39,572 nt of DNA from a virus (taxonomy: Duplodnaviria > Heunggongvirae > Uroviricota > Caudoviricetes): the IMG/VR virus record IMGVR_UViG_2531839178_000021, positions 1 through 39,572 of that record; one strand, written 5' to 3'. Of the stretch, positions 2,240 to 33,057 are shown in pieces. The position numbers and the translations under genes were made by a program. The notes beneath the pieces were generated by a model, which made no database searches, was not told the origin of the DNA, and worked only from the letters and a program-made list of their open reading frames with translations. Positions within the stretch are counted from its first letter, which is position 1. Every line of letters begins with the position of its first letter.

Positions 2240-2689
2240 ATGGCTCGCTACGACCTTCCCGATGAGGCATGGACCATCATCAAGCCCCTGTTACCTCCTG
2301 AACCCGCCACACCACGGGCCGGACGCCCATGGGCTGAGCACCGTAAAATCATCAATGGCATGTTCTGGGTGTTATGTTCCGGTGCACCATGGCGCGATTT
2401 ACCCGAACGATATGGGTCATGGAAAACTGTTTATAACCGCTTTAACCGATGGTCAAAGTCAGGCGTGATTAATATTATTTTCAACAGGTTGCTTTCGCTA
2501 CTTGATGCAAACGGCTTTATTGACTGGTCTGCCACCGCGCTGGATGGCAGTAATATCCGGGCGCTGAAATGTGCCGCCGGTGCTCAAAAAAACATCCCGA
2601 TATCGACGGAGATAATGGGCTGGGTCGCTCTCGCGGCGGTTTTGGCACCAAAATCCATCTGGCAACAGACGGAAGTGGCCTCCCGTTAA
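2240..2689 (+). CDS. IS transposase OrfA (DUF4096-like N-terminal part)
   Basis: MARYDLPDEAWTIIKPLLPPEPATPRAGRPWAEHRKIINGMFWVLCSGAPWRDLPERYGSWKTVYNRFNRW; A7 run at 2586-2592 places OrfB in the -1 frame. Confidence 0.8.
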   Translation: MARYDLPDEAWTIIKPLLPPEPATPRAGRPWAEHRKIINGMFWVLCSGAPWRDLPERYGSWKTVYNRFNRWSKSGVINIIFNRLLSLLDANGFIDWSATALDGSNIRALKCAAGAQKNIPISTEIMGWVALAAVLAPKSIWQQTEVASR

Positions 2690-3084
2690 ATATCGTGCTA
2701 AGCCCCGGACAAGCTCATGAAAGCCAGTTCGCGCAACGACTTCTGGACGGGATTGGCGTTCAGCGTCAGAACGGCAGCATGAAACGCCGTGGACATGCGG
2801 TACTGGCTGATAAAGCGTATTCAGGGCGCGCATTGCGCAACGAGCTGAAAAATAACGGTATAAAGGCAGTAATCCCCCGAAAGTCAAATGAGAAAATGGC
2901 ATCGGATGGACGTGCACAGCTTGATCGTGATGCGTACTGCAATCGTAATGTCGTTGAACGGTGCTTTGGGCGGCTGAAAGAATATCGCCGCATCGCCACG
3001 CGTTACGACAAAACGGCGAGAAATTACCTGGCGATGGTGAAACTGGGCTGCATCCGACTCTTTTATCAACGCTTACGTAATTAA
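2569..3084 (+). CDS. IS transposase OrfB (DDE catalytic part), expressed as OrfAB fusion by -1 frameshift
   Basis: ...ADKAYSGRALRNELKNNGIKAVIPRKSNE...NRNVVERCFGRLKEYRRIATRYDKTARNYL, IS4/IS5-superfamily C-terminal signature. Confidence 0.8.
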   Translation: MCRRCSKKHPDIDGDNGLGRSRGGFGTKIHLATDGSGLPLNIVLSPGQAHESQFAQRLLDGIGVQRQNGSMKRRGHAVLADKAYSGRALRNELKNNGIKAVIPRKSNEKMASDGRAQLDRDAYCNRNVVERCFGRLKEYRRIATRYDKTARNYLAMVKLGCIRLFYQRLRN

Positions 3085-6769: not shown

Positions 6770-6922
6770 ATGAATGATATCTTTGTTCTTACAAGGGAAG
6801 AGCTTGAAACACTAGATTATAGTGTTTTTATGCATATACCAGTTACATTTCATGCACATAAAATAAAAAATATCTGGATGGGATTGCTGAATCATCAGAA
6901 AACCCCAAAGAGAAAAAATTAG
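6770..6922 (+). CDS. Cargo locus ORF segment 1 (frame 2), possibly the N-terminus of one larger gene
   Basis: ATG 6770 with AAGGTG 7 nt upstream; low-GC; frame-1 ORF opens at 6862 overlapping this segment across A6 runs (6865-6870, 6913-6918). Confidence 0.45.
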   Translation: MNDIFVLTREELETLDYSVFMHIPVTFHAHKIKNIWMGLLNHQKTPKRKN

Positions 6923-6936
6923 CATCTCTTTTTGGT

Positions 6937-7242
6937 ATGCTATATAGTTTCAATTTGCAAGTTGTTAACAACACTCCATCATTTGAACCCCAAATGATTT
7001 GGGGTAATAAAAGATCAATATTGCCTGAAGATTTTGATGAGCAGGTGAATGACTGTCTTTTATATGTTTCTCAAAAAATAACCAATCCATTTTTGTTATC
7101 AAGAATATATGATGTTGTTTGGTGTAATAATCGGAAAAATAAAGACGTGGCAATTAAAGCAATTGATTCCTATGCTGAAATGCTAAATATAGCAATTGAA
7201 AAGCTAATAATAAAAACGAAAGCATGGATGAAAGTGATTTAA
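6937..7242 (+). CDS. Cargo locus ORF segment 2 (frame 1), hypothetical
   Basis: 101-aa ORF MLYSFNLQVVNNTPSFEPQMIWGNKRS...; overlaps segment 3 by 19 nt across an A5 run (7212-7216). Confidence 0.45.
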   Translation: MLYSFNLQVVNNTPSFEPQMIWGNKRSILPEDFDEQVNDCLLYVSQKITNPFLLSRIYDVVWCNNRKNKDVAIKAIDSYAEMLNIAIEKLIIKTKAWMKVI

Positions 7243-8600
7243 ATTGCTTTATTTTTGCTCGTGATTATATTGCTAGGGCTTTGCACATTAATAAAATGGT
7301 CTACCCTAGAAAATCAGAAGGAAACATGGCGATTAAAAATGCCATTCATTCTCTTTATAGTATTCAAAATGAAAGATTAATCTTTGAAGGTTTCAATAAT
7401 TTGACTTGGTTTATGGTGCGTGATTTTGATGGGTATAATCTGCAGTATGCGGAAAATGCTGAGAAGATGGCTGAGCAGCATAAAGATAAAAAATATTATG
7501 ATGCTGTAAAATCACTTTATATGACAAGTGCAGTTATTTATGAAAAAAATGGTGAGTATGAACGTGCCAAGAGATGTAAACTGGCATCTGCAAATATTAC
7601 TATTAAAGTTGCAACAGATCGACCTGATAATATGGGTAAGATCTCTTGGTTAAGAACAGCTATCTCTGAATTAAGACAGTACGGTGGTGATAGCCAACAG
7701 ATAGAAGATTTAAAGGAACAACTTGCTAATTTGAGAGAAGAAGTAAGGAGTGAATATGTCACTTTAAGCCATTCTATTGATATTAGTGACTTGGTTGCTG
7801 AAAGTGAAAAAAAACTGACGGGGCGTTCTTTGCCCGATATATTCAAAGTTTTAATGCGTGAAACACCGATTGAAAATATTGAAAGCATGAGGGAACAAGT
7901 TTTAAGATTATCAGAAAAAAGTTTATTCTCTAGTTTTGTTGGAACAGAAATTAATGATGAGAGTGGGCGTAAGATATATACAATCCCGCCGTTGGATAAT
8001 AAAAAAGATATGAGTGATGATGTTGTTATTGATCAATATCTAAGAAATTTCGAGATTACTCATAAGATTTTTGTAAACGGTGTCTTTGAACCTGCTCGCT
8101 ATGTACTTTCTCAAGAACATGGCTTGACGTTGTCAACATTCGTTAAATTGGTTACAACTAGTCCAATTGTCAAGCCGGAGTTTAGGGAGATTTTTAATTT
8201 GGGCTTTTACAAATTATGGCAGGGAGATTACATCAGTGCAGCTTATCTTTTAATACCACAAATGGAGGGTATGGTTCGTTATTATTATGAGCTTAGTGGA
8301 AAGGATGCTACTAGATATTTGGATAAGGGATTAGAGGAGTCAACAAGTATTTCTCAGCTTCTAGATAAATGCAGAGATGATTTGGAAAGTATCTTTTCTA
8401 AAAATCTTGTTTTGACTATCGATGTTCTTTTTAACAGAAAGAGTGGGGCAACCTTAAGACATAAATTAGCACATGGTAATTTATATACTAATGCTTGTTA
8501 CGATGAAACAACGACATATGCATGCATCCTGATTTTCTTTCTGTGTGCTTATCCTCTCCTACCATATTTTGATACTGTTTTTGAACAGGGCTCTGTTTGA
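7224..8600 (+). CDS. Cargo protein, 458 aa, unknown function with C-terminal HEPN-like R-x4-H motif; candidate abortive-infection/defence effector
   Basis: low-GC ORF; motif RHKLAHG encoded at 8457-8477; coiled-coil-like EDLKEQLANLREEVRSEY; no Walker A, so not an Old-type ATPase. Confidence 0.6.
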   Translation: MDESDLNCFIFARDYIARALHINKMVYPRKSEGNMAIKNAIHSLYSIQNERLIFEGFNNLTWFMVRDFDGYNLQYAENAEKMAEQHKDKKYYDAVKSLYMTSAVIYEKNGEYERAKRCKLASANITIKVATDRPDNMGKISWLRTAISELRQYGGDSQQIEDLKEQLANLREEVRSEYVTLSHSIDISDLVAESEKKLTGRSLPDIFKVLMRETPIENIESMREQVLRLSEKSLFSSFVGTEINDESGRKIYTIPPLDNKKDMSDDVVIDQYLRNFEITHKIFVNGVFEPARYVLSQEHGLTLSTFVKLVTTSPIVKPEFREIFNLGFYKLWQGDYISAAYLLIPQMEGMVRYYYELSGKDATRYLDKGLEESTSISQLLDKCRDDLESIFSKNLVLTIDVLFNRKSGATLRHKLAHGNLYTNACYDETTTYACILIFFLCAYPLLPYFDTVFEQGSV

Positions 8601-9929: not shown

Positions 9930-10034
9930 TGTTTTTGCCGCAGGTTGCGGTGTTTTCCCTTTTTCTTGCTCATCAGTAAAACTCCAGAATGGTGGATGTC
10001 AGCGGAGTGCTGATACCGGCGGTGAGTGGCTCAT

Positions 10035-11744
10035 TTAACAGGGCGTGCATGGTCGCCCAGGCGAGGTCGGCGTGGCTGGCTTCCTCGCTGCGGCTGGCCT
10101 CATAGGTGGCCTGCGTCCGCTGCTGGTCATGGTCTTGCGGATAGCCATGAACGAGCTGGTGATGTCGGTGGCGCTGACGTCATATTCCAGACAGCCACGG
10201 CGGATAACGTCTTTTGCCTTGAGCACCATTGCGGTTTTCATTTCCGGCGTGTAGCGGATGTCGCGCGCGGCGGGATAGAACGAGCGCACAAGCTGGAACA
10301 CGCCGACACCGAGGCCGGTGGCATCAATACCGATGTATTCGACGTTGTATTTTTCGGTGAGTTTGCGGATGGATTCCGTCTGGGTGGCAAAGTCCATACC
10401 TTTCCACTGGTGACGCTCAAGTATTCTGAATTTGCCACCGGCCACCACCGGCGGTGCCAGTACCACGCATCCGGCGCTGTCGCCACGGTGTGACGGGTCG
10501 TAACCAATCCATACCGGTCGGGAGCCGAACGGATTGGCGGCAAACGGCGCATAGTCTTCCCATTCTTCCAGCGTGTCGACCATGCAGCGTTGCAGCTCCT
10601 CGAACGGGAATACCGATGCCTTGTCGTCAACAAATTCACACATGAACAGGTTTTTAAAATCGTCGGCGCTGTTTTCGCGTTTAAGCTGCTCAATGTCGAA
10701 CAGCGTGCAGCCACCTTTCAGGGCGTCCTCAATGGTGACAATCTGCCGCCACTGGCCGTCCGCACAGAGAAGCCCACCGGCAAGGGCGTTATGACTGATG
10801 TCGATTTCCACGCGTTCGGCGGCGCTGGCGCGTCCCCGGTTAAACAGTTCACCCGACCAGAACGGGTAGGCGTCGTGCGCCAGCGTGGACGGGGTGGAGA
10901 AATAGGTCGAGCGCAGGTGACTCTGTGAGGCCATACCTGATGCCATCTTACGCAGTACCTGAAAATTCGGGATCCAGAACATCTCGTCGACGTACAGGTC
11001 GCCGTTATGGCTCTGCGCGGTGTTGGAGTTGGTGCCGAGAAAAATCAGTTTTGCGCCGTTATTGCCCAGGACAATCGGGTCACCGGTCAGGTCAACGTCA
11101 ACCAGCCGGGCAAAGGCGATGATGTATTCGCGGAACACATACGCCTGTGTTTTACTGGCCGACAGAAAAATCTGGTTATGACCGGTTTTCAGGGCGCGCA
11201 GCAGCGCCTCGCGGGAAAAATAAAACGTCGCGCCAATCTGGCGGGATTTCAGGATATCGCGGATGCGGTGCTCAAGCCCGGCGCGATACCAGTGCAACTG
11301 ATATTCGAAAGACTGCTCAAAGAAAATCTGCTCCAGCTTTTCGATGGCTTCGTCACTGAAAAAATTCTTTTTCGGTTTGCGACGCCCGCCTTTGTTGCGG
11401 TTAGCGACGTTCGGATTAAGGTCTGCCTCGTTGCCGGTCTGACTGTAGCGGTTGACCCGCGCCAGTCGTTCAATCTGGCGTCCCAGCAGGTCAATTTCCT
11501 TGAAGTCACCGCCGGTTTTCTGCGGTTTGATAATGAGCTGGGTCAGCCGCGCTTCCAGACTCATTTCGACACGGCTGATGGGGGCAACGCTGTCCCAGCC
11601 GTCGCGCTGTTTCCAGCTCTGCACCGTCGGGCGTTTCATCTGCAACATGGCGGCAATCTGCGGCACGGAAAACCCCTGCCAGTACAGCAGCGCCGCCTGA
11701 CGACGCGGGTCGTGCAAAAGAGTGGTGTCTGTGGTGATGGTCAT
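10035..11744 (-). CDS. P: Terminase large (ATPase) subunit P; 3' end frame-broken
   Basis: MTITTDTTLLHDPRRQAALLYWQGFSVPQIAAM...; C-terminal ~30 codons are Pro/Arg-rich, while the adjacent frame gives ..YEASRSEEASHADLAWATMHALLNEPLTAGISTPLTSTILEFY ending in TGA overlapping the upstream Q ATG (TGATG). Confidence 0.85.
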   Translation of the reverse strand: MTITTDTTLLHDPRRQAALLYWQGFSVPQIAAMLQMKRPTVQSWKQRDGWDSVAPISRVEMSLEARLTQLIIKPQKTGGDFKEIDLLGRQIERLARVNRYSQTGNEADLNPNVANRNKGGRRKPKKNFFSDEAIEKLEQIFFEQSFEYQLHWYRAGLEHRIRDILKSRQIGATFYFSREALLRALKTGHNQIFLSASKTQAYVFREYIIAFARLVDVDLTGDPIVLGNNGAKLIFLGTNSNTAQSHNGDLYVDEMFWIPNFQVLRKMASGMASQSHLRSTYFSTPSTLAHDAYPFWSGELFNRGRASAAERVEIDISHNALAGGLLCADGQWRQIVTIEDALKGGCTLFDIEQLKRENSADDFKNLFMCEFVDDKASVFPFEELQRCMVDTLEEWEDYAPFAANPFGSRPVWIGYDPSHRGDSAGCVVLAPPVVAGGKFRILERHQWKGMDFATQTESIRKLTEKYNVEYIGIDATGLGVGVFQLVRSFYPAARDIRYTPEMKTAMVLKAKDVIRRGCLEYDVSATDITSSFMAIRKTMTSSGRRPPMRPAAARKPATPTSPGRPCTPC

Positions 11745-22860: not shown

Positions 22861-22931
22861 TTCAGAAAGATCAGAACGGTGCGGATATCCCTGATAAAGA
22901 ACGCTTCCTGAGTAACATTAGGCTGTGTCCC

Positions 22932-23444
22932 TTAATTACGTAAGCGTTGATAAAAGAGTCGGATGCAGCCCAGTTTCACCATCGCCAGGTAATTTCTCGC
23001 CGTTTTGTCGTAACGCGTGGCGATGCGGCGATATTCTTTCAGCCGCCCAAAGCACCGTTCAACGACATTACGATTGCAGTACGCATCACGATCAAGCTGT
23101 GCACGTCCATCCGATGCCATTTTCTCATTTGACTTTCGGGGGATTACTGCCTTTATACCGTTATTTTTCAGCTCGTTGCGCAATGCGCGCCCTGAATACG
23201 CTTTATCAGCCAGTACCGCATGTCCACGGCGTTTCATGCTGCCGTTCTGACGCTGAACGCCAATCCCGTCCAGAAGTCGTTGCGCGAACTGGCTTTCATG
23301 AGCTTGTCCGGGGCTTAGCACGATATTTAACGGGAGGCCACTTCCGTCTGTTGCCAGATGGATTTTGGTGCCAAAACCGCCGCGAGAGCGACCCAGCCCA
23401 TTATCTCCGTCGATATCGGGATGTTTTTTGAGCACCGGCGGCAC
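22932..23444 (-). CDS. IS transposase OrfB (copy 2)
   Basis: same protein as 2569-3084 apart from the N-terminal residues at the A-run. Confidence 0.75.
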   Translation of the reverse strand: MPPVLKKHPDIDGDNGLGRSRGGFGTKIHLATDGSGLPLNIVLSPGQAHESQFAQRLLDGIGVQRQNGSMKRRGHAVLADKAYSGRALRNELKNNGIKAVIPRKSNEKMASDGRAQLDRDAYCNRNVVERCFGRLKEYRRIATRYDKTARNYLAMVKLGCIRLFYQRLRN

Positions 23445-23775
23445 ATTTCAGCGCCCGGATATTACTGCCATCCAGCGCGGTGGCAGACCAGTCAATAAAG
23501 CCGTTTGCATCAAGTAGCGAAAGCAACCTGTTGAAAATAATATTAATCACGCCTGACTTTGACCATCGGTTAAAGCGGTTATAAACAGTTTTCCATGACC
23601 CATATCGTTCGGGTAAATCGCGCCATGGTGCACCGGAACATAACACCCAGAACATGCCATTGATGATTTTACGGTGCTCAGCCCATGGGCGTCCGGCCCG
23701 TGGTGTGGCGGGTTCAGGAGGTAACAGGGGCTTGATGATGGTCCATGCCTCATCGGGAAGGTCGTAGCGAGCCAT
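23401..23775 (-). CDS. IS transposase OrfA (copy 2); with A6 the OrfB frame is +1 rather than -1
   Basis: MARYDLPDEAWTIIKPLLPP...AQKTSRYRRR stop. Confidence 0.7.
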   Translation of the reverse strand: MARYDLPDEAWTIIKPLLPPEPATPRAGRPWAEHRKIINGMFWVLCSGAPWRDLPERYGSWKTVYNRFNRWSKSGVINIIFNRLLSLLDANGFIDWSATALDGSNIRALKCAAGAQKTSRYRRR

Positions 23776-24682
23776 AGTTCAATATGTTGTGTAAACAGAC
23801 AGTTACTATAGCTCAGATGATTAAGGGACACAGCCTAGTGTTTTTTATGTTGAAGCCAGAGCTTTCCCTGTACAAATTCTTGCAGAGGAAGGGCTAACGG
23901 TTATTGTTCCGACAGAGGATTATGTCGTCGGTCAAACGACATATAAGTGGGGGGCAACTAATCCCGCTACAGAAAGCACGAACGCACAGGCTATTCTGGA
24001 TTTTAAAAATGGACGTGGTTATTACTGTTCACATCCATTTATTTCCAGCCTTTCAGGAAATGCTGCAACAGCAACGAAGTTAGCGAACGCAAGAAATATT
24101 AATGGTGTCAGATTTGATGGCTCTGCCGATATAAATATTAATACACTGGTATCCAGAAACCGTGTTACTGCATTAGGTGGGAGCGTAAAGGGGACACCAG
24201 GTATTCAGATGTATGAGGCATACAACAATGGCTACCCAACAGCCTATGGTAATGTGCTTCATCTCACTGGCGTAACCGCAGTAGGAGAGGGTGAGTTACT
24301 TATTGGTTGGAGTGGAACCAGCGGTGCTCATGCTCCGGCATATATTCGTTCCCGACGAGATACCACAGATGCTAACTGGTCTGGATGGGCGCAACTATAT
24401 ACAACTGCTCATAAACCCTCAGCGGGAGATGTTGGTGCATACACCAAAACTGAGTCAGATTCACGTTATGTGAGAGACATGCGGCTGGGCGGTGCATCTA
24501 CATATAAACCAGCAAATAATGGTACTACATGGACGCATCAGGCTCCGTCAGGTTGCGTATATACCGGCATTATTGTTCAGGATACCGGCTCAAACTCTGC
24601 CGATAACATTGGTGGCGTATATTACAGACCGGTGCAGAAATACATTAACGGGACATGGTATAACGTGGTGCAGGTATAATTT

Positions 24683-25210
24683 ATGCAGCATTTAAAAAAT
24701 ATTACGGCGGGTAATCCAAAAACGGTTGAACAATATCAATTGACAAAGGACTTTGATGTTGTCTGGTTTTTTTCAGAAGATGGTAAGAACTGGTACGAAG
24801 AACAAAAGTATTTTGCTGATGACACGATAAAAATAGCGTACGACAAAGATAATATCATCCACTATGTGGAAAAGGATGTGACAGCTATCAGACCGGATGG
24901 ATTAAGTGTTGTTGAAGTGGCGGATATTACTGCTAACCGACGGGCGGACATTTCAGGGAACTGGATGTTTAAGGACGGCAAAGTGATTAAACGCGTTTAT
25001 ACGGCAGAGGAATTACAGCAGCAGGCAGAAATTCGGAAAGCCAGACTTCTTGCAGATGCTGAATCCGTGATTTTGCCGCTGGAGCGCGCGGTCAGACTGA
25101 ACATGGCAACAGATGAGGAGCGTAGCCGACTGGAATCATGGGAACGCTACAGCGTTCTGGTCAGTCGTGTGGATCCTGCAAATCCTGAATGGCCGGAAAT
25201 GCCGCAATAA
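24683..25210 (+). CDS. G: Tail fibre assembly chaperone G
   Basis: 175-aa [44 protein letters not shown] immediately after H. Confidence 0.85.
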
Positions 25211-25298: not shown

Positions 25299-25677
25299 AC
25301 CCTCGATTACATCAAAGAGCCCTATAGCCGAAACCTGCACCATAGCCATCTCTGTAGAATTCGTCCTAGGGGCTTTTAACAGACCTAGTTGTATGGATCG
25401 GAAGGAAATATTAAAGCTCAAGGCGTCAGTCCAGTGCTGTCCTGTTTGCTTACCACACGAAAGAGTGCTGCTTGTACCTGCTAACTAATGGTATGCGGAG
25501 TGAGGGGGGCGGGTAGAACCAAAAGCACTTACTACGTGTGGCGCTCTCCTGGAAGAGGAGACGTCGAAGTGATAACGCTAACAACAGTCTTACTGGTGAT
25601 GCAAATAATGCTAGCTGGTCTGGTTGCCATCAAGCAACTGACCGGACGCCCGTAAGGGATGGAGGAACTTGATTAAA

Positions 25678-25707
25678 GGCAGGGGGGTTACCTCCCCTGC
25701 CTTTTTC
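25678..25707 (+). terminator. Strong rho-independent terminator
   Basis: GGCAGGGG-ggttacct-CCCCTGCC followed by TTTTT; lies ~470 nt downstream of G stop with no ORF of 60 aa or more between. Confidence 0.75.
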
Positions 25708-25769
25708 GTTTCTGCGCAAGTTAGCTCTGTTATTATAATCCTTACTCACACTGTAAGGACATAGTTCAA

Positions 25770-26033
25770 ATGACTGAATGGCTTAATGCACATTTTGGTG
25801 CAGACGCAGCTACCTATCTTAGCTTATTAGTCGGCGTACTGGCACTGTTTGGTATTGGGGGCGGTGTTACATATAGAATCAGACAGCAAAACAACATAAA
25901 ACAGAAGGCAAAGAAAACCGAGGGTGATGTGAACCAGGCCGGGCGGGATATTAATCAGACCACCAACGTTTACCACACATCCAATGAATCTACTGAGGAC
26001 CCTGTAAAAAAAAGCAAGATGAACATGATCTGA
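25770..26033 (+). CDS. Membrane-anchored hypothetical protein, N-terminal segment (single TM helix)
   Basis: TATAAT at 25734-25739; MTEWLNAHFGADAATYLSLLVGVLALFGIGGGV; ORF ends just after an A8 run (26006-26013) where the next ORF's frame opens. Confidence 0.55.
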   Translation: MTEWLNAHFGADAATYLSLLVGVLALFGIGGGVTYRIRQQNNIKQKAKKTEGDVNQAGRDINQTTNVYHTSNESTEDPVKKSKMNMI

Positions 26034-26056
26034 AGATAATCGACCAGATCCTTGAA

Positions 26057-26452
26057 TTGCTGCCTTATGAGGATACTACTCAATGGGTTGAGCAGAGCTA
26101 CCTGAGCGGTATACGGCAAGATGTTTGCTTAAACATTGAAAAAGCTGAAAAATTTAGCGGTGAAAAGTATCGGTTATTCAATACTGAAGTGAATGGTGCG
26201 AAAGACGCTTTTTTGGACGCTATGACCGCATACGTAGATAGTACGCTACCATTTATGAGTGTTGATTACCCGAACAGAAAGCCAGTGATGCTAAGCCTTC
26301 CCCATGACTGGAAGAGTAAGAGTGTTGAATCGGAGGCAAACTTCCGCTTTCATCAGCAAAATGTGCGTGAAACATCGGGGGGGATGATTGCGCGCTATGA
26401 GGATTTTGTCAGGACATTTAAGGCTCATGGATTCATAAGCGATAAACTGTAA
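26057..26452 (+). CDS. Hypothetical protein segment lacking an ATG start; probably the C-terminal part of one ~227-aa gene 25770-26452 broken by a 1-nt deletion
   Basis: frame open from 25997; ORF-track start is TTG; frame offset from 25770 is of deletion type. Confidence 0.5.
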   Translation: MLPYEDTTQWVEQSYLSGIRQDVCLNIEKAEKFSGEKYRLFNTEVNGAKDAFLDAMTAYVDSTLPFMSVDYPNRKPVMLSLPHDWKSKSVESEANFRFHQQNVRETSGGMIARYEDFVRTFKAHGFISDKL

Positions 26453-26545
26453 AGGCGCAGTGGGTCAGCGAACACCGCAACGACAGAACCGCGTAAGCGG
26501 TAAAATCAGCTTGTTAACTGGCGAGTTTATAGCCGTCCCTCCGGG

Positions 26546-27846
26546 CTGAGGGATCCCCACAAAATTACTGCTAATAAACCAGTACCATATTTCGGTAGGT
26601 TCTGGACAGATGGTTTAGAACTGTGCTCAGTACTGTTCGTCTTAAAATAAGTGGCGAGTGTCGAAGAACATTCTTCGCTAACGTCAGATATGAGATAACC
26701 CGCCGGGATTTAATGCTGTTAGCCTGATATTTCAGGTGTAACCCTTTATTTTCAGCGTGATAACCGAGTAACCACATTACGATAGTGCTCAACGTTGCCA
26801 GCAGACTCAGAACCAGAATTCTTCCTGTTGAACGACTTTTGCTGGCCCGAAGACCAAATCCGAAGCGCCCGTTCTTTTCATCACGAAAGTTTTGCTCTAT
26901 CTGCATTCGCCGACTGTATAACTTGATGATTTCTCGCGCTCTGAAGTCATTTGTACTGCTGAAGATCAACCAGGCTTCTTTTGCTGATTTGCTCTGTTCT
27001 TTGTCTGTTTTGTTTAAACCACTCTGACCTTTCGAACGTTTCTTTTTTCGCCCTTTTGCCGATTTCTTATAGGTGTAAAAATGCCCCCGGATGCTTTTTT
27101 TCCTTTCTTTAACCAGCCTTCCAGCCCCCATATATTCCGGTGTTTTACATTCAGGGCTATCCGACACTTTTAACCATCTTTCAGGCGCGTTATCGAGGCA
27201 ATACTGAACGTTATTTCTGATCCGACCAATAAAATCCCAGCCCAGAGAAGTAATATGGTGAAACCATGCGCTCTGAAATCCAGCATCCGTGACAATAATA
27301 ACCCTGGCATCGGGGGGCAGGGATTGAGCAAGGGAATCAAGGAAATCATGTTGTATCAATGGATTATTTTGTTTTTCAGAAGGAACAACCTTACTCAATA
27401 ACGGAATGGAACGCCCGTCACACAGAAGGCTGGCACGAAGAACATGATGCTCCTGGGAGGGATAGCCACTCCAGTCTACGGCTATTACACATAAAGATAA
27501 CTGCCGTGTCAGCATTGAAGTGATATTCCTGAAAATCATTGGAATATCGCGATGGAGCGCCTCATTACCCATGAGGCGATCAATACGTTTGCTCTTATTC
27601 TTAACTTGTGCATTACCCGGGAAAAAACGTCCGATACTGGTCAGCGTCAGAGATGCTCCGTTGATTAACGCCACTGTGGCATCCATCAGGGCATTTTGTC
27701 GGTACTGATGAAATGGTGCTAAGGCATCCCGGAAGAAATTCTGACATACTTTATGAACAGGCATAGCAGTGATCTCATTGAATTGTTGGCACAAATCAGT
27801 AGATCACATAATGCTATGTCTGTCTCGTTTTCTGGGAATTCCTCAG
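26546..27846 (-). mobile_element. IS10-like (IS4-family) insertion sequence, ~1.3 kb, with 9-bp target-site duplication CCCTCCGGG
   Basis: ends CTGAGGGATCCCC (26546-) and its reverse complement (-27846); identical 9-mers at 26537-26545 and 27847-27855. Confidence 0.8.
26571..27764 (-). CDS. IS10-like transposase (~397 aa)
   Basis: KRIDRLMGN, VDWS, VLRAS, TDAGFQSAWF, SLGW, SKGRKKKRS, SAKEAW, IKLYSRRMQIEQNFRD, FGLRAS: motifs shared with the IS10 transposase. Confidence 0.8.
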   Translation of the reverse strand: MPVHKVCQNFFRDALAPFHQYRQNALMDATVALINGASLTLTSIGRFFPGNAQVKNKSKRIDRLMGNEALHRDIPMIFRNITSMLTRQLSLCVIAVDWSGYPSQEHHVLRASLLCDGRSIPLLSKVVPSEKQNNPLIQHDFLDSLAQSLPPDARVIIVTDAGFQSAWFHHITSLGWDFIGRIRNNVQYCLDNAPERWLKVSDSPECKTPEYMGAGRLVKERKKSIRGHFYTYKKSAKGRKKKRSKGQSGLNKTDKEQSKSAKEAWLIFSSTNDFRAREIIKLYSRRMQIEQNFRDEKNGRFGFGLRASKSRSTGRILVLSLLATLSTIVMWLLGYHAENKGLHLKYQANSIKSRRVISYLTLAKNVLRHSPLILRRTVLSTVLNHLSRTYRNMVLVY

Positions 27847-27931
27847 CCCTCCGGGGCGGCTTTTTTATGACTATAATCGACAGAATCACCTGAACGTCCA
27901 GGTGGGTTTCCCTGACAGGACGTCAAGGAAT

Positions 27932-28116: not shown

Positions 28117-28902
28117 ATGTACGATTATAGTTTTTTACTTACTCCATCTACAGGATTTGTTAAAGGATTATGTGGAGTTTGGTCGAATGATTTCTCTATA
28201 AATGATGATTCTGACTCTGATTTAGGGCAAACAGATATTCATTTACTTTCATCTCCTCATTTGAATATCATATCCGACCCAAATGAATTGGCTTCCAAGT
28301 TAAAAGGTTTGTTGATGCTCATGAACGGCGCACTTAGCGTTCTTTATGGTTTTGAAAGATATCAATCTTTTGGTCCTCTTTCTATTTCTGGAAGTGAAGG
28401 CATTAATTACTCGGAAATATGCGGCTTTAAATCAATGGATGTAACTCAGGTAAACCCCTTTAATTTCCATGACATACAGCAACCACACCCTCGCGCTGAT
28501 AATTTTTCACGATTAATTAATTTATCATCTAAACATGAATCCTTACGTGTTGTTTTAGGTATGTGTGCCTTAGGTTATGATTGGGTTAATCTTTATCGTT
28601 TGTGGGAAACAATTAGAGAATATGTATATGATAAATATGTGAAAGGTATACTAAATTTCCCCGACGCTTATAAAGGCAAGAAATATCAGAGAGATAAAGT
28701 AATTAGCATGGCTTTTAATATTGATGAAAAGGAAATCAGCAGATTCACGGGCACTGCTAATAGCTTTGAACTGTTAGGGTATCTTGCGAGACATGGAAAG
28801 GGAAGTTCCGGAGGGATATTAAAAAATCCGATGTCAAGAGTTGACGCAAGCATTTTCGTACACAAAGCAACTTACAAATATTGTAAGTTATTTTTGATGT
28901 AA
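28117..28902 (+). CDS. Hypothetical cargo protein (261 aa), unknown function
   Basis: low-GC ORF with AAGAGGGA RBS; no recognisable motif. Confidence 0.6.
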   Translation: MYDYSFLLTPSTGFVKGLCGVWSNDFSINDDSDSDLGQTDIHLLSSPHLNIISDPNELASKLKGLLMLMNGALSVLYGFERYQSFGPLSISGSEGINYSEICGFKSMDVTQVNPFNFHDIQQPHPRADNFSRLINLSSKHESLRVVLGMCALGYDWVNLYRLWETIREYVYDKYVKGILNFPDAYKGKKYQRDKVISMAFNIDEKEISRFTGTANSFELLGYLARHGKGSSGGILKNPMSRVDASIFVHKATYKYCKLFLM

Positions 28903-29004
28903 GTAAAAAGTTGAAGCTATAATACTCAAAGTATCGAAAACTACGTTCGTCGTGCACTCGAAAACAATATGCTTATTGTGTCTGCACTAATTACTCAAGG
29001 TCCG

Positions 29005-29041
29005 AGAAAAATGGCGAAGCTCATCTTTTTCAGGCTTCGCC
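29005..29041 (-). terminator. Hairpin terminator between the convergent genes 28117-28902 and 29064-29816
   Basis: GGCGAAGC-13 nt loop-GCTTCGCC; on the minus strand followed by ATTTTT. Confidence 0.5.
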
Positions 29042-29063
29042 AACTTGAGTTATTGGTTAAAAT

Positions 29064-29816
29064 TCATTTAGGAATAATAGAATGCAATTCGTGACTCACC
29101 TGGATTTCATAGTGTTTCAATAGTTCTCCGATGTTAATTCCTACTACCTTACGAACTGCGCCGAGGGAGAAGTTAAGCTCCTCAATGCCCGGCCGATCTG
29201 GCGTTGAATTCATATAGTGTCGGCACGCACGGACAATTGACTCGACGATCAACGATAGCGGAGACTCAGGTGCAATCTCGGAGCGAATCGCCGTAAGAGA
29301 GAGTCGGAGCTCCTTCAAAGAATCCGAGACTCGTGCTGGATCCTCTTGAGCATATGGCAGATAAAGAGAACTCTTGTCTTCCAATAAATGGATCAACCGC
29401 AGAGCAATTTTCTCGTCTGGGCGATGCGATAGAAATTGAAACATTAGCCTCTTTCCTCCCTCCAAGCACTCCTTCATTAGTGATTCGTGGTCACGTTTCC
29501 ATTTTCGCAAATACTCGGCGGGGTAGCCCATACCGCCATTCTTATCAACTAAATCAGCACAAGCTCCGCACAACCATATAGCATTTTTTATGCTCTTCCG
29601 CTCTGTTTCTGACTGAGACATGTCATAGCGCGGTCCGCCAGGGCTCGCCGCGCAGATATGCGCCGCCTCACCCGTCTTGATAGAAAGATTTTCCGCCAAT
29701 TGATCCGGGCCGATTGTTACCCTATGACAAGAGGGATTGCTACAAATATATGTAGCGCGCTCTGCTACCTTACCTACAACGCTTGGAGGAAAGTTGTGCC
29801 TATTTGTCTTGGTCAT
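29064..29816 (-). CDS. Hypothetical protein with N-terminal Cys/His cluster resembling an HNH/His-Me-finger nuclease motif
   Basis: YICSNPSCH ... AAHICAASPGG ... NAIWLCGACADLVD; mid-GC; the IS630 copy lies ~70 bp upstream of its start. Confidence 0.45.
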   Translation of the reverse strand: MTKTNRHNFPPSVVGKVAERATYICSNPSCHRVTIGPDQLAENLSIKTGEAAHICAASPGGPRYDMSQSETERKSIKNAIWLCGACADLVDKNGGMGYPAEYLRKWKRDHESLMKECLEGGKRLMFQFLSHRPDEKIALRLIHLLEDKSSLYLPYAQEDPARVSDSLKELRLSLTAIRSEIAPESPLSLIVESIVRACRHYMNSTPDRPGIEELNFSLGAVRKVVGINIGELLKHYEIQVSHELHSIIPK

Positions 29817-29887: not shown

Positions 29888-31041
29888 AATAGCTGCGCTT
29901 AATACCGCTACACTTTTGCCAGTCCATGTTTGCCTCCGGGGAATGGGCTGACGGTTTCCATAAAATGGCGAACTTTTTTCAACAGTTGCCACATTGAGCG
30001 GCACTGATGATTACGCGTTATTGTGTCGTGAAGTGCCTGCCATAGCCGTTCAACATGATTCACCCATGGCGAGTAAACCGGCTGATAAATGACCCTGAAC
30101 TTCGGGTTCTCCTTCAGCCAGCTCTGTGTTTCCCGGCTTTTGTGGATAATGTAGTTGTCCACGATCAGCGTGATGGTTTTCGCCCGACGCTATGTCGCTT
30201 TAAGCCGCTTCAGCAGGCTGATGAACAGCGCCGAACTTTTTGCTGTTGCCGCCCACATAGCTGACTTTACCTGTCCCGCTGTGCAGCGCTCCGGCCAGAT
30301 AATATTTTTCATTCTGTCCCGGCGTGACCACCCGTTTTTGCTGTCCGCGCAGTTGCCAGTCCGCACCGATTTTGGGATGAAGATGGATATCCACTTCATC
30401 TTCATAAAAGACCGGATGCTCTGCGCTGCATTCGTCCAGTGCTTTATGGATTGCTGCCATCTTTTCATCTTTATGCGGGTCACGGATACGCAGAGTTGGC
30501 GCAGCCCTTCGCCACACAATCCCCGCAGACGGCAACCAGCGGCGAACGGTTCCGGCATTTAACTGGCAACCGGTTATCTCATTGATTTTTATTGCCAGCA
30601 GTTCTGTACTCCAGCGTGAACGCTGGTAGCCAAAGTCGCCGGGAGAATGTTTTACCAGCTCACGTAACAGTGTGCAGATATGCTCAAACGGCCAGCGACG
30701 GGCACGCCCGGCAGGTAATGATTTCAGTCCCTCAACACCCGACTGCGTGAACCAGTTAATCCAGCGTCCAACAGAGGAACGGGCGCAGCAGAGCGTTCTG
30801 GCAACGTCGCTGACACGGTCGCCCCGGTGCAGCATCAGCATGGCAGTCAGTCTGCGGGCATAATTTTTATCGTGTGTTTTATGGATGGCTTTCTGCATCA
30901 GGCGTCGTTCGTCACGGGAAATTGGTGCTATGATCGGCATTGCTCAGTCCGGTTGGTGATTTGTTTTGATTTGGCGATTGATCAGATCGCACAATCCGGG
31001 CTAAGTTCCCTCAAAATGATCTACTATTCCGCGCAGCTATT
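29888..31041 (-). mobile_element. IS630-family insertion sequence (1154 bp), TA duplication within a CTAG target
   Basis: terminal repeats aatagctgcgc (29888-) and gcgcagctatt (-31041); TA at 29886-29887 and 31042-31043 flanked by C and G. Confidence 0.85.
29908..30940 (-). pseudogene. IS630 transposase, split into two ORFs (30200-30940 and 29908-30162) by a frame break
   Basis: N-part MPIIAPISRDERRLMQKAIHKTHDKNYARRL.. and C-part ..NYIIHKSRETQSWLKENPKFRVIYQPVYSPWVNHVERLW together approximate the recalled single 343-aa IS630 transposase. Confidence 0.75.
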
Positions 31042-31214
31042 TAGGTCTGACCAGCAACCTATTGATCAAAAAACCAAGATATTAGCTAAAAAAATCAGCA
31101 TACTTGAGACCAAGCTCAATGTCCGCTCCTCGCTCAAAGCAGACTGTCAGATTTGATAGCATTTGGGCTATGTAAATTGTCAGGCGGAAAATGAGTGAGT
31201 ACAAATCAGGACAG

Positions 31215-31336: not shown

Positions 31337-32527
31337 ATGAGTGACTATCATCACGGCGTGCAGGTGCTGGAGATTAACGACGGCACCCGCGTCATTTCCA
31401 CCGTATCCACGGCCATTGTCGGCATGGTCTGCACGGCCAGCGATGCAGATGCGGAAACCTTCCCCTTCAATAAACCGGTGCTGATTACCAATGTGCAGAG
31501 CGCAATTGCAAAGGCCGGTAAAAAAGGCACGCTGGCGGCGTCGTTACAGGCCATCGCTGACCAGTCAAAACCGGTCACCGTTGTTGTGCGCGTGGAAGAC
31601 GGCACCGGCGACGACGAAGAAACGAAGCTCGCGCAGACCGTTTCCAATATCATCGGCACCACCGACGAAAACGGTCAGTACACCGGACTGAAAGCCCTGC
31701 TGGCGGCGGAGTCGGTAACCGGTGTTAAACCGCGCATTCTCGGTGTGCCGGGACTGGATACCAAAGAGGTGGCTGTTGCACTGGCATCAGTCTGTCAGAA
31801 GCTGCGCGCTTTCGGGTATATCAGCGCATGGGGCTGTAAAACCATTTCCGAGGTGAAAGCCTACCGCCAGAATTTCAGCCAGCGTGAGCTGATGGTCATC
31901 TGGCCGGATTTCCTCGCATGGGATACGGTCACCAGTACCACCTCCACCGCGTATGCCACCGCCCGTGCGCTGGGGCTGCGCGCTAAAATCGACCAGGAGC
32001 AGGGCTGGCATAAAACGCTGTCCAACGTCGGGGTGAACGGTGTTACCGGCATCAGCGCGTCCGTATTCTGGGATTTGCAGGAGTCCGGCACCGATGCTGA
32101 CCTGCTTAACGAGTCAGGCGTCACAACGCTGATTCGCCGTGACGGTTTCCGCTTCTGGGGTAACCGTACCTGCTCTGATGACCCGCTGTTCCTCTTTGAA
32201 AACTACACCCGCACCGCGCAGGTGCTGGCCGACACGATGGCTGAGGCGCACATGTGGGCGGTGGACAAGCCCATCACCGCAACGCTGATTCGCGACATCG
32301 TTGACGGCATCAATGCCAAATTCCGTGAGCTGAAAACAAACGGCTATATCGTGGATGCGACCTGCTGGTTCAGCGAAGAATCCAACGATGCGGAAACCCT
32401 CAAGGCCGGAAAACTGTATATCGACTACGACTATACACCGGTGCCTCCTCTCGAAAACCTGACCCTGCGCCAGCGTATTACCGATAAATACCTGGCAAAT
32501 CTGGTCACCTCGGTTAACAGCAATTAA
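31337..32527 (+). CDS. FI: Tail sheath protein FI
   Basis: 396-aa ORF MSDYHHGVQVLEINDGTRVISTVSTAIVGMV. Confidence 0.9.
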   Translation: MSDYHHGVQVLEINDGTRVISTVSTAIVGMVCTASDADAETFPFNKPVLITNVQSAIAKAGKKGTLAASLQAIADQSKPVTVVVRVEDGTGDDEETKLAQTVSNIIGTTDENGQYTGLKALLAAESVTGVKPRILGVPGLDTKEVAVALASVCQKLRAFGYISAWGCKTISEVKAYRQNFSQRELMVIWPDFLAWDTVTSTTSTAYATARALGLRAKIDQEQGWHKTLSNVGVNGVTGISASVFWDLQESGTDADLLNESGVTTLIRRDGFRFWGNRTCSDDPLFLFENYTRTAQVLADTMAEAHMWAVDKPITATLIRDIVDGINAKFRELKTNGYIVDATCWFSEESNDAETLKAGKLYIDYDYTPVPPLENLTLRQRITDKYLANLVTSVNSN

Positions 32528-32539
32528 GGAGCCTGACCG

Positions 32540-33057
32540 ATGGCAATGCCGCGCAAACTCAAGTTAATGAACGTCTTTCTGAACGGCTACAGCTATCAGG
32601 GCGTTGCAAAGTCCGTCACGCTGCCAAAACTGACCCGTAAACTCGAAAACTATCGCGGTGCGGGGATGAACGGAAGCGCACCGGTAGACCTCGGCCTTGA
32701 TGACGATGCGCTGTCAATGGAGTGGTCGCTCGGGGCTTCCCGGATTCGGTTATCTGGGAGCTCTACGCCGCAACCGGCGTGGATGCCGTACCGATTCGTT
32801 TTGCTGGCTCTTACCAGCGCGACGATACCGGCGAAACGGTGGCCGTCGAGGTGGTCATGCGTGGCCGTCAGAAAGAAATCGACACCGGCGAGGGGAAACA
32901 GGGAGAAGACACCGAGTCGAAAATCTCCGTGGTCTGCACCTATTTCCGGCTGACGATGGACGGTAAGGAGCTGGTCGAAATCGACACCATCAACATGATT
33001 GAGAAGGTGAACGGTGTCGACCGGCTGGAGCAACACCGCCGCAATATCGGCCTGTGA
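32540..33057 (+). pseudogene. FII: Tail tube protein FII, frame-broken at a G4 run (32732-32735)
   Basis: ORF 32540-32953 (MAMPRKLKLMNVFLNGYSYQGVAKSVTLPKL...SMEWSLG) shifts to ORF 32722-33057 (GFPDSVIWELYAATGVDAVPIRFAG...); deletion-type offset. Confidence 0.8.

Follow-up and report, generated by a model that had tools for sequence, protein, structure and literature searches.

Among bacterial defence genes, homopolymer switching is known from the pglX G-tract of Pgl/BREX in Streptomyces and from the phase-variable mod genes of restriction-modification; in these, a coding mononucleotide run expands and contracts in nature and a change of length turns the gene off. Membrane effectors of defence systems, as in TIR-TM (PADLOC), Thoeris and CBASS, join a membrane anchor to a cytoplasmic domain, and in abortive-infection systems of this kind a transmembrane segment and a TIR domain can replace each other as the output. 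In P2-like phages the 'fun' locus, situated between the tail-fibre assembly and sheath genes, carries a variable accessory cassette with its own terminators. Phage P2 has fun at this position, which Vassallo et al. (2022, PMC9519451) named as a second site enriched in defence genes in P2-like phages.

The gene described here is found at the same position in the window, i.e., the whole stretch of 39,572 nt that was analysed. Over 8,264 nt the window matched contig AKNA01000058.1 (assembly GCA_000268145.1, Shigella boydii 965-58) without a difference. The surroundings represent a P2-like prophage, with genes for replication protein A, portal, terminase, tail-fibre assembly protein and tail sheath, and yegQ is the chromosomal flank of the prophage. 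A first-pass annotation, made from the letters alone, had described 25770-26452 as a membrane-anchored cargo protein split at a run of eight A's. Its status as cargo agrees with the location between the tail-fibre assembly gene (24683-25210) and the tail-sheath gene (31337-32527). The features of the locus are listed in Table 1.

The split gene, its intact relatives and the interrupted terminator

Eight A's were read directly from the sequence. The upstream ORF, 87 aa from an ATG start, reads the run as GTA AAA AAA AGC, continues for five out-of-frame codons with the C-terminus ...PVKKSKMNMI, and stops at TGA 26031-26033, 18 nt past the run. The downstream ORF (26057-26452, 131 aa) has a TTG start and no ATG. 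Its frame opens right behind a TGA at 25994-25996 and stays open over 25997-26452, giving an overlap of 37 nt (25997-26033) between the two frames, with the A-run inside. The second frame lies at -1 relative to the first, so that a single additional A fuses the ORFs, as the first-pass annotation had proposed. The joined product has 227 aa and is identical to WP_000141343.1. The frame break falls after residue 82, and up to this point the upstream ORF is identical to the intact protein. The sequence for the C-terminal domain is complete and unmutated, but as written its -1 frame separates it from the N-terminal module. At the junction the joined protein reads ...EDPVKKKQDEHDLKII..., matching a motif kept in every homologue, and the join restores the family motif ...VKKKQDEHDLKII, which is conserved across all homologues.

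Table 1. Positions of features at the split gene and its borders in the window.
Feature	Position	Strand	Description and basis
Intrinsic terminator	25675..25704	+	Strong; shields the gene from the tail-fibre assembly operon upstream; terminator scan (13-bp stem, then T-run)
-10 hexamer TATAAT	25734..25739	+	Consensus, 30 nt upstream of the ATG; possible own promoter with poor -35; read directly
5' part of the gene	25770..26033	+	Extracytoplasmic N-terminus, one membrane helix, basic stretch and low-complexity linker (QAGRDIN), as predicted from ORF list, hydropathy, charge and alignment
A8 tract	26006..26013	+	Intact allele has A9; the frame breaks here; sequence, alignment to relatives
3' part of the gene, -1 frame	26014..26452	+	Conserved helical-bundle domain, predicted cytoplasmic (HDLKII..LELLPYEDT ... 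FISDKL); translation, AlphaFold2, homologues
Left half of terminator hairpin and first target duplication copy	26531..26545	+	9-bp copy CCCTCCGGG at 26537-26545; comparison with uninterrupted L002
ISSfl1, IS4 family, 1301 bp	26546..27846	-	Ends CTGAGGGATCCCC and CTGAGGAATTCCC; borders and duplication
ISSfl1 transposase ORF	26571-27794	-	Pfam DDE_Tnp_1; NCBIfam IS4 family, E = 1.6e-107
Second target duplication copy, right half of terminator and T-run	27847..27866	+	CCCTCCGGGGCGGCTTTTTT; comparison with uninterrupted locus

Among 5,426 complete E. coli genomes, 33 carried the same DNA at 99.5% identity or more. Probed with a 101-nt sequence spanning the run, 32 of the 33 showed the in-frame length, A9, and the remaining one, strain elppa5, showed A10, with the gene annotated in two pieces; A8 was seen in none. 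In the relatives' records examined, the gene is a single CDS of 684 nt, and the 227-aa product is WP_000141343.1, a 'hypothetical protein' of Enterobacteriaceae. Within the gene, the window has A8 where seven loci (L001-L003, L005, L009-L011) have A9, and the alignment is otherwise without difference. Intact relatives, with run length as the sole difference, are the signature of a homopolymer frameshift pseudogene. The overlap of the two frames is not a chance pattern, because the relatives differ at the gene only by A9, which gives the 227 aa. Between L001 and L005, nine of the 11 differing sites are at third codon positions, which argues for purifying selection on the frame over its whole length. 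By these sequence comparisons 25770-26452 is one gene rather than two. With the intact WP_000141343.1 allele the window shares DNA, promoter region, terminator and neighbours; it differs from it by the frame break after residue 82 at A8 and by ISSfl1 in the terminator.

Of the signals around the gene, the upstream terminator ends in T5 in the window, against T6 in each of the eight relatives compared. The -10 box, which the first-pass annotation had assigned to the gene, held as a perfect TATAAT but not as a promoter: it lacks an acceptable -35, and a sigma-70 scan upstream of the gene, with a threshold of at least 4/6 matches in both hexamers, called nothing, the TATAAT standing alone. In L004, a homologue with 68% identity, a similar AT-rich stretch resembling a -10 box is present, and the AAGGA...ATG spacing is unchanged.

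Downstream of the gene, uninterrupted loci carry the hairpin AGCCGTCCC-TCCG-GGGCGGC followed by TTTTTT. By comparison with these, the window has a 1,301-bp IS inside the gene's hairpin, with a 9-bp duplication, and the terminator was indeed disrupted by an IS element. The element was 99.7% identical to a copy annotated as ISSfl1, and its DDE transposase, terminal inverted repeats and 9-bp direct target duplication are those of the IS4 family. It had been labelled 'IS10-like', which is fair: IS10 likewise has an IS4-family DDE transposase, a length of ~1.3 kb, a 9-bp target duplication and CTGAG...-type terminal inverted repeats, although the element is ISSfl1 and not IS10. A second IS, IS630-like and 1,155 bp long, is located at 29888-31042. 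In Shigella boydii 965-58, then, the prophage carrying the gene is interrupted by several IS elements.

Length of the A-run in the strain and across lineages

The missing A may be absent from the DNA of the strain, or it may be a homopolymer under-call of the draft assembly, and we consider the two about evenly balanced. The record IMGVR_UViG_2874920711_000012 has the identical junction of gene and ISSfl1, but with A9. It also shares with the window two lineage markers, an extra T at 25492 and the state at 10110. The identical junction together with the shared markers implies that this sister record is the same dead prophage in a close relative. At four positions where the window is one base short, 9959 (T6), 18027 (A6), 18537 and 25701 (T6), the sister has the consensus length. 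The window alone has T5 at 9959 among 49 P2 contigs, and it alone has a four-base run at 32731 among 122 P2 contigs, by which the tail-tube gene is truncated. Two further A-run contractions in the window, at 6864 and 7211, split the DUF7380/PDC-S39 gene, the cargo of the other hotspot, whose intact E. coli form encodes 610 aa. The events found in the window only are all single-base losses, nearly all of them in A/T runs, and they are numerous relative to the substitution difference of ~0.1% from the sister. Such losses are typical of homopolymer under-calling. The locus L022, from AKNH01 with a prefix adjacent to AKNA01, also has A8 and carries a unique G-run loss of its own. On the side of a real mutation, the assembly of the A9-bearing sister is itself full of systematic homopolymer errors, although all in G/C runs, a prophage riddled with IS elements is free to decay, A9 is the most mutable site of the gene, and A8 is real in other lineages. 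The first-pass annotation was right to be cautious about the A-run, as the strain may not lack the A at all. Frameshifts of this contig, including the split DUF7380/PDC-S39 gene, are not safely read as biology without the reads.

Alleles were counted by exact look-up in a collection of 15 billion proteins. The intact allele, with full-length product, was found on at least 1,000 contigs, versus roughly 100 with split forms. The A8 allele (product end ...KKSKMNMI) was found on 59 contigs, with extra variants in Morganella and others, the A7 allele (...KKAR) on 14, and the A10 allele (...KKKAR) on 13, plus a Raoultella variant. Serratia had two further alleles, one with the G behind the run lost (...KKNKMNMI, 3 contigs) and one of A11 type (...KKKTR, 1 contig). 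Scans at the DNA level gave one Serratia genome with the ...KKNKMNMI-type break and A10 in one metagenome contig. The 68%-identical homologue carries A10 as well, and its in-frame form would also be A9.

Both A8 and A9 occur within the P2 prophage context (L020 and L009, respectively), and likewise within the Ag43 island context (A8 in L013, L015, L019 and L022, A9 in L001); therefore the length changes arose more than once. In three samples of one lineage, A8 was the only indel in 6.7 kb relative to the A9-bearing L001. Three samples of another lineage had A8 in common and were gap-free among themselves. Judged from these alignments, at least two lineages genuinely have A8. Slippage recurs at the tract, which is the most slippage-prone site of the gene, and off loci make up only ~3-10% of those sampled. 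Elsewhere in the family the in-frame tract is A8 (L036, L037), an interrupted A6TAA (L027, L039) or A6 (L025, Vibrio). The tract is thus not conserved as such, and the A-run looks to be a side effect of coding for Lys-Lys-Lys in a gene rich in A and T. As most of the disrupted alleles seen trace to the A-tract, surveys counting this gene should join the two ORFs.

Three other readings of the split were weighed. That a small membrane peptide and a soluble protein of 131 aa are made from two separate genes is hardly credible. Gene callers annotate both pieces in many assemblies, and the protein library holds many stand-alone ORFs of 58-87 aa with the same N-terminal module; but the second ORF lacks an ATG and its frame opens inside the first, the intact form is much the commoner, and homologues down to 36% identity are single proteins of 219-234 aa. 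Programmed recoding would make A8 the working form, with -1 ribosomal frameshifting on A_AAA_AAA or transcriptional slippage giving the full-length protein in addition to an 87-aa stub. The zero frame, GT[A AAA AAA] AGC, does offer a slippery heptamer of the X_XXY_YYZ type at 26006-26012, a -1 ribosomal shift or an extra A in the mRNA restores exactly the wild-type VKKKQDE, and long A runs are known to cause slippage in E. coli. Yet most relatives are in frame with A9 anyway and the homologues are single-frame, the off alleles A7 and A10 would need different shifts, and the upstream GAGG is just 6 nt from the run. RNA structure downstream of the run was not significant (z = -1.1). Read-through, if any, is to be expected as leakage and not as design, and we regard programmed recoding as very improbable, while a low level of leaky frame restoration on A8 is plausible.

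Selected phase variation, in which A9 would be a contingency switch for a costly membrane-acting gene (on at A9, off at A7, A8 and A10), has more in its favour and still seems improbable to us. Length variants in both directions recur over several species and contexts, and the A9 run is kept in lineages with 55-68% protein identity (L004, L007, L012). Apart from the run, off and on alleles do not differ over 684 nt, and the events are therefore recent. Against a switch, the run is not conserved beyond what coding requires, with A9, A8, A6TAA or A6 in frame depending on lineage, the off state is confined to the small fraction of loci given above, and A8 is stably inherited over several samples of one lineage, as a plain pseudogene would be. 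A neutral mutational hotspot accounts for all the observations. Compared with pglX and mod, with which the gene shares a coding mononucleotide run that expands and contracts in nature and whose change in length means off, the tract here is without sign of selective maintenance or of switching within a strain, and the off alleles resemble ordinary pseudogenes. We take the A-run frameshift as an ordinary homopolymer event or a sequencing under-call. Taken together, the locus is very probably one 227-aa gene, a stand-alone mobile cargo of a P2 prophage, with a non-programmed one-base contraction from A9 to A8. By such a contraction the A9 context GTA AAA AAA AAG would come to be read as A8. If the A is truly missing, a loss-of-function pseudogene with an 87-aa membrane stub would result, and polymerase or ribosome slippage would yield at most a trace of full-length protein from A8.

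The intact protein, its family and its mobility

The basic flank of a membrane helix stays cytoplasmic according to the positive-inside rule. In the joined protein a single N-terminal hydrophobic helix was recognized at residues ~13-33, in line with the membrane anchor expected from the first ORF. The best 19-residue hydropathy window was 15-33 (Kyte-Doolittle 1.9), and the net charge was -2 before the helix and +6 after it. The charges and the positive-inside rule together place the bulk of the protein in the cytoplasm (N-out/C-in). An alignment of 14 sequences showed W4, N6, G10, D12, A14 and Y16 as invariant in the N-terminal stretch. The N-terminal module, M-x2-W-L-N-x3-G-x-D-x-A-T-Y followed by the hydrophobic helix and a basic stretch, is present in the first ORF of the window. 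It is followed by a low-complexity linker with a QAGRDIN motif, which is tripled in one homologue, and a Lys-rich patch lies between the linker and the conserved domain of ~145 residues. This C-terminal domain starts with HDLKII..LELLPYEDT and ends with GFI.DK, and it is in one polypeptide with the N-terminal module only after adding one A. AlphaFold2 modelled it as a helical bundle with pLDDT 96.9. The intact product would accordingly be described as a 227-aa bitopic inner-membrane protein with a short outside N-terminus and one helix, then some 50 residues of flexible linker leading to a cytoplasmic bundle of ~145 residues.

The family is small. It comprised 16 clusters at 90% identity in a search of 5.8 billion sequences and 60 proteins at E <= 0.001 in a profile search of 1.84 billion representatives, with homologues from Enterobacterales, Vibrio and Pseudoalteromonas. 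The joined protein had no match among Pfam, PHROGs, NCBIfam and PADLOC models. For PADLOC, expected to cover systems published by 2023, there was no hit at E <= 0.1. The family profile gave nothing below E = 0.5 against PDB sequences, and no enzymatic or toxin domain was found in the protein. In distant homologues the C-terminal domain is placed behind other N-terminal segments, which read as hydrophobic helices. One remote homologue has it after a TIR domain (Pfam TIR_2, 1.2e-7), replacing the membrane helix; the match of the C-terminal domain to this TIR protein reached 96.2% probability and E = 2.6e-9 in hhalign, and the gene adjoins an AbiEi/AbiEii pair on a TraG/ParA element. The N-terminal module, in turn, also precedes a different helical domain of ~250 residues, and many ORFs of 58-87 aa in the protein library bear this module alone; considered as evidence for a free-standing peptide, these may be true genes, fragments or other frameshifts.

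The gene was found together with genes for a 261-aa protein and a 250-aa DUF6650 protein in P2 prophages and in the Ag43/GTPase island. Without these neighbours it was found in a deleted form of the same island, in a resolvase/acetyltransferase element, in a Vibrio alginolyticus superintegron cassette array rich in toxin-antitoxin pairs, after lambdoid phage tail-fibre genes, and in a Salmonella int/RelB/ParA element. These contexts characterize it, at the level of sequence, as a stand-alone, horizontally mobile accessory gene. A partnership of the 227-aa gene with the 261-aa and DUF6650 genes was considered and rejected, because a terminator separates them and the gene occurs alone in several contexts. 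The two neighbours (28117-29816) were also considered as a Type VI Thoeris system, which is composed of TIR and the DUF6650 protein ThsG (bioRxiv 10.64898/2025.12.03.692087). The 250-aa neighbour is DUF6650 and matches PDC-M68A, but the TIR partner is absent, the 261-aa protein having neither a TIR nor another hit, and this candidate was rejected too.

Putative role and comparison with known systems

The defence neighbourhood of the family includes the P2 fun locus, Abi_C, RelB and AbiE genes, and toxin-antitoxin-rich cassettes; the 68%-identical homologue adjoins the Abi_C gene, and RelB genes are likewise found next to homologues. Among models of known or candidate defence proteins no match was obtained, the sole support of this kind being a machine-learning prediction. 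In the DefensePredictor list WP_000141343.1 is labelled 'Predicted novel defense gene', its log-odds of 5.3 exceeding the cut-off of 4 (PMC13092281 Table S5). The accession is absent from the tested-system tables of PMC13092281, and a full-text literature search for WP_000141343.1 found no paper.

Tentatively, and with somewhat less than even confidence, we infer that the intact protein is a putative single-protein anti-phage defence of the abortive-infection type. The reasons are the hotspot position, the DefensePredictor listing, the occurrence of the C-terminal domain on a TIR protein by AbiEi/AbiEii, and the swappable N-terminal module. In this scheme a cue from the phage would be perceived by the cytoplasmic bundle, and the effect on the membrane would come from the conserved N-terminal membrane module. 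As a pore-forming effector, one transmembrane helix by itself is not a strong candidate. The main alternative is that the protein serves superinfection exclusion or is another lysogenic-conversion moron at the inner membrane, where it could, for example, prevent the entry of DNA or alter a membrane partner. The position after the tail-fibre genes is one at which exclusion morons are found, P2 fun among them (PMC9519451), and this gene sits there in P2-like and lambdoid prophages, and a membrane-anchored protein without enzymatic or toxin domain suits such a role. Most of the protein, however, is predicted to be cytoplasmic, the gene is also found outside phages, in integron cassettes, islands and plasmid-like elements, and the C-terminal domain on a TIR protein near AbiE suits a cytoplasmic sensor better. 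We therefore consider an exclusion or other moron function rather unlikely, and retain abortive-infection defence as the working proposal. A bolder version of the latter would be a new membrane-tethered sensor-effector, with the 'WLN..G.DWATY' helix as an output swappable with TIR, the helical bundle as a novel sensor and A9 as an on/off switch. If this were true, hosts would shed and regain a costly defence and the window would represent the off state, but we give such a combination little chance.

The sequence feature itself is of little weight, as a homopolymer frameshift is expected in an accessory gene of an IS-riddled Shigella prophage. The interest rests on the intact protein, a member of a rare, uncharacterised modular family at a known defence hotspot and a computationally predicted defence gene. 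Its modular build, with a membrane helix or TIR ahead of the same helical bundle, makes a concrete testable hypothesis. The gene is homologous to no PADLOC system, which sets it apart from the known cargo of the fun locus, while it shares with that cargo the site between tail-fibre assembly and sheath genes. HMM searches did not assign the protein to membrane effectors of the TIR-TM, Thoeris or CBASS type, and it differs from these by having one helix only and no recognisable nucleotide-binding or signalling domain or conserved partner gene. Like them, it combines a membrane anchor with a cytoplasmic domain, and in a remote homologue TIR takes the place of the helix.

One-base deficits and their possible source

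The A8 run that splits the gene is not the only run in the window with a single base missing. Deficits of one base were also found at positions 9959, 18027, 18537, 25701 and 32731, mostly in A or T runs, and none of these contractions was present in any comparator. The contraction at 9959 was missing from all 48 other P2 contigs, and that at 32731 from all 121. The sister prophage, which has the same junction with the insertion sequence, was without the contraction at each of the four sites it covers, that is, all but 32731. Several of the window-only contractions break conserved genes, e.g., at the portal N-terminus and in the tail tube. This distribution suggests either systematic under-calling of homopolymers in the draft contig or unusually fast decay.

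The sister assembly (IMGVR_UViG_2874920711_000012) has an error pattern opposite to that of the window, with about ten one-base contractions, nearly all of them in G/C runs. Two of its runs within the 227-aa gene are shortened, G5 to G4 and G7 to G6, yet the A9 run is intact. Frameshifts in the 227-aa gene can thus be platform artefacts, as this assembly illustrates. Some Serratia alleles (locus L006 and proteins P0021 and P0030) carry either A9 followed by C, the G after the run being lost, or a run of the A11 type, which suggests that in one lineage a change of AAG to AAA gave an in-frame A10 that later slipped in both directions.

Other broken genes and insertion sequences

The candidate defence gene of the other P2 cargo hotspot, DUF7380/PADLOC PDC-S39, stands between the genes for replication protein A and the portal, and in the window its frame is likewise broken, by two one-base contractions of A runs. 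Its intact counterpart in E. coli Ecol_867 (WP_021535452.1) is 610 aa long. At least four IS elements lie within the prophage, which is therefore defunct. The 1,155-bp insertion has IS630-like features, with helix-turn-helix and DDE_3 matches, and the frame of the transposase it encodes seems to be disrupted. It was missing from nearly all relatives compared, and the alignment of the sister prophage runs through part of it.

Features of the prophage outside the 227-aa gene
Feature	Position	Strand	Remarks
IS-derived sequence	2569-3084		near prophage left end; DDE_Tnp_1 match
DUF7380/PDC-S39 gene, broken	6771-8600		pieces are ORFs 6937-7242 and 7224-8600
Contraction A7 to A6	~6864		in DUF7380/PDC-S39 gene
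Contraction A6 to A5	~7211		in DUF7380/PDC-S39 gene
IS-derived sequence	22925-23835		inside tail-fibre gene region; DDE_Tnp_1 match
261-aa protein gene	28117-28902	+	neighbour of 227-aa gene; convergent with 29064-29816
250-aa protein gene (DUF6650)	29064-29816	-	convergent with 28117-28902
1,155-bp insertion	29888-31042		between DUF6650 gene and tail-sheath gene

The N-terminal module and the convergent neighbours

The conserved N-terminal module of the 227-aa protein has the layout ML.WLN..G.DWATY, a helix and a G..IQ.GGD linker. Among the profile-search matches P0081, P0086, P0105 and P0079-P0116, it was also found fused to a helical domain of a different, unrelated kind (about 250 aa) and in dozens of stand-alone ORFs of 58-87 aa. 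A Lys run closes several of these ORFs, which may be either genuine small membrane proteins or more genes cut short at the tract.

No family was detectable for the 261-aa neighbour. The 250-aa protein is recorded as DUF6650 in RefSeq and in a precomputed table, the Pfam scan being without DUF6650. Its N-terminal ~118 residues match PADLOC PDC-M68A (8e-24), and the same residues also match CBASS endonuclease effectors. No TIR partner was visible beside its gene. DUF6650 has recently been given the name ThsG, as the effector of type VI Thoeris (bioRxiv 10.64898/2025.12.03.692087).
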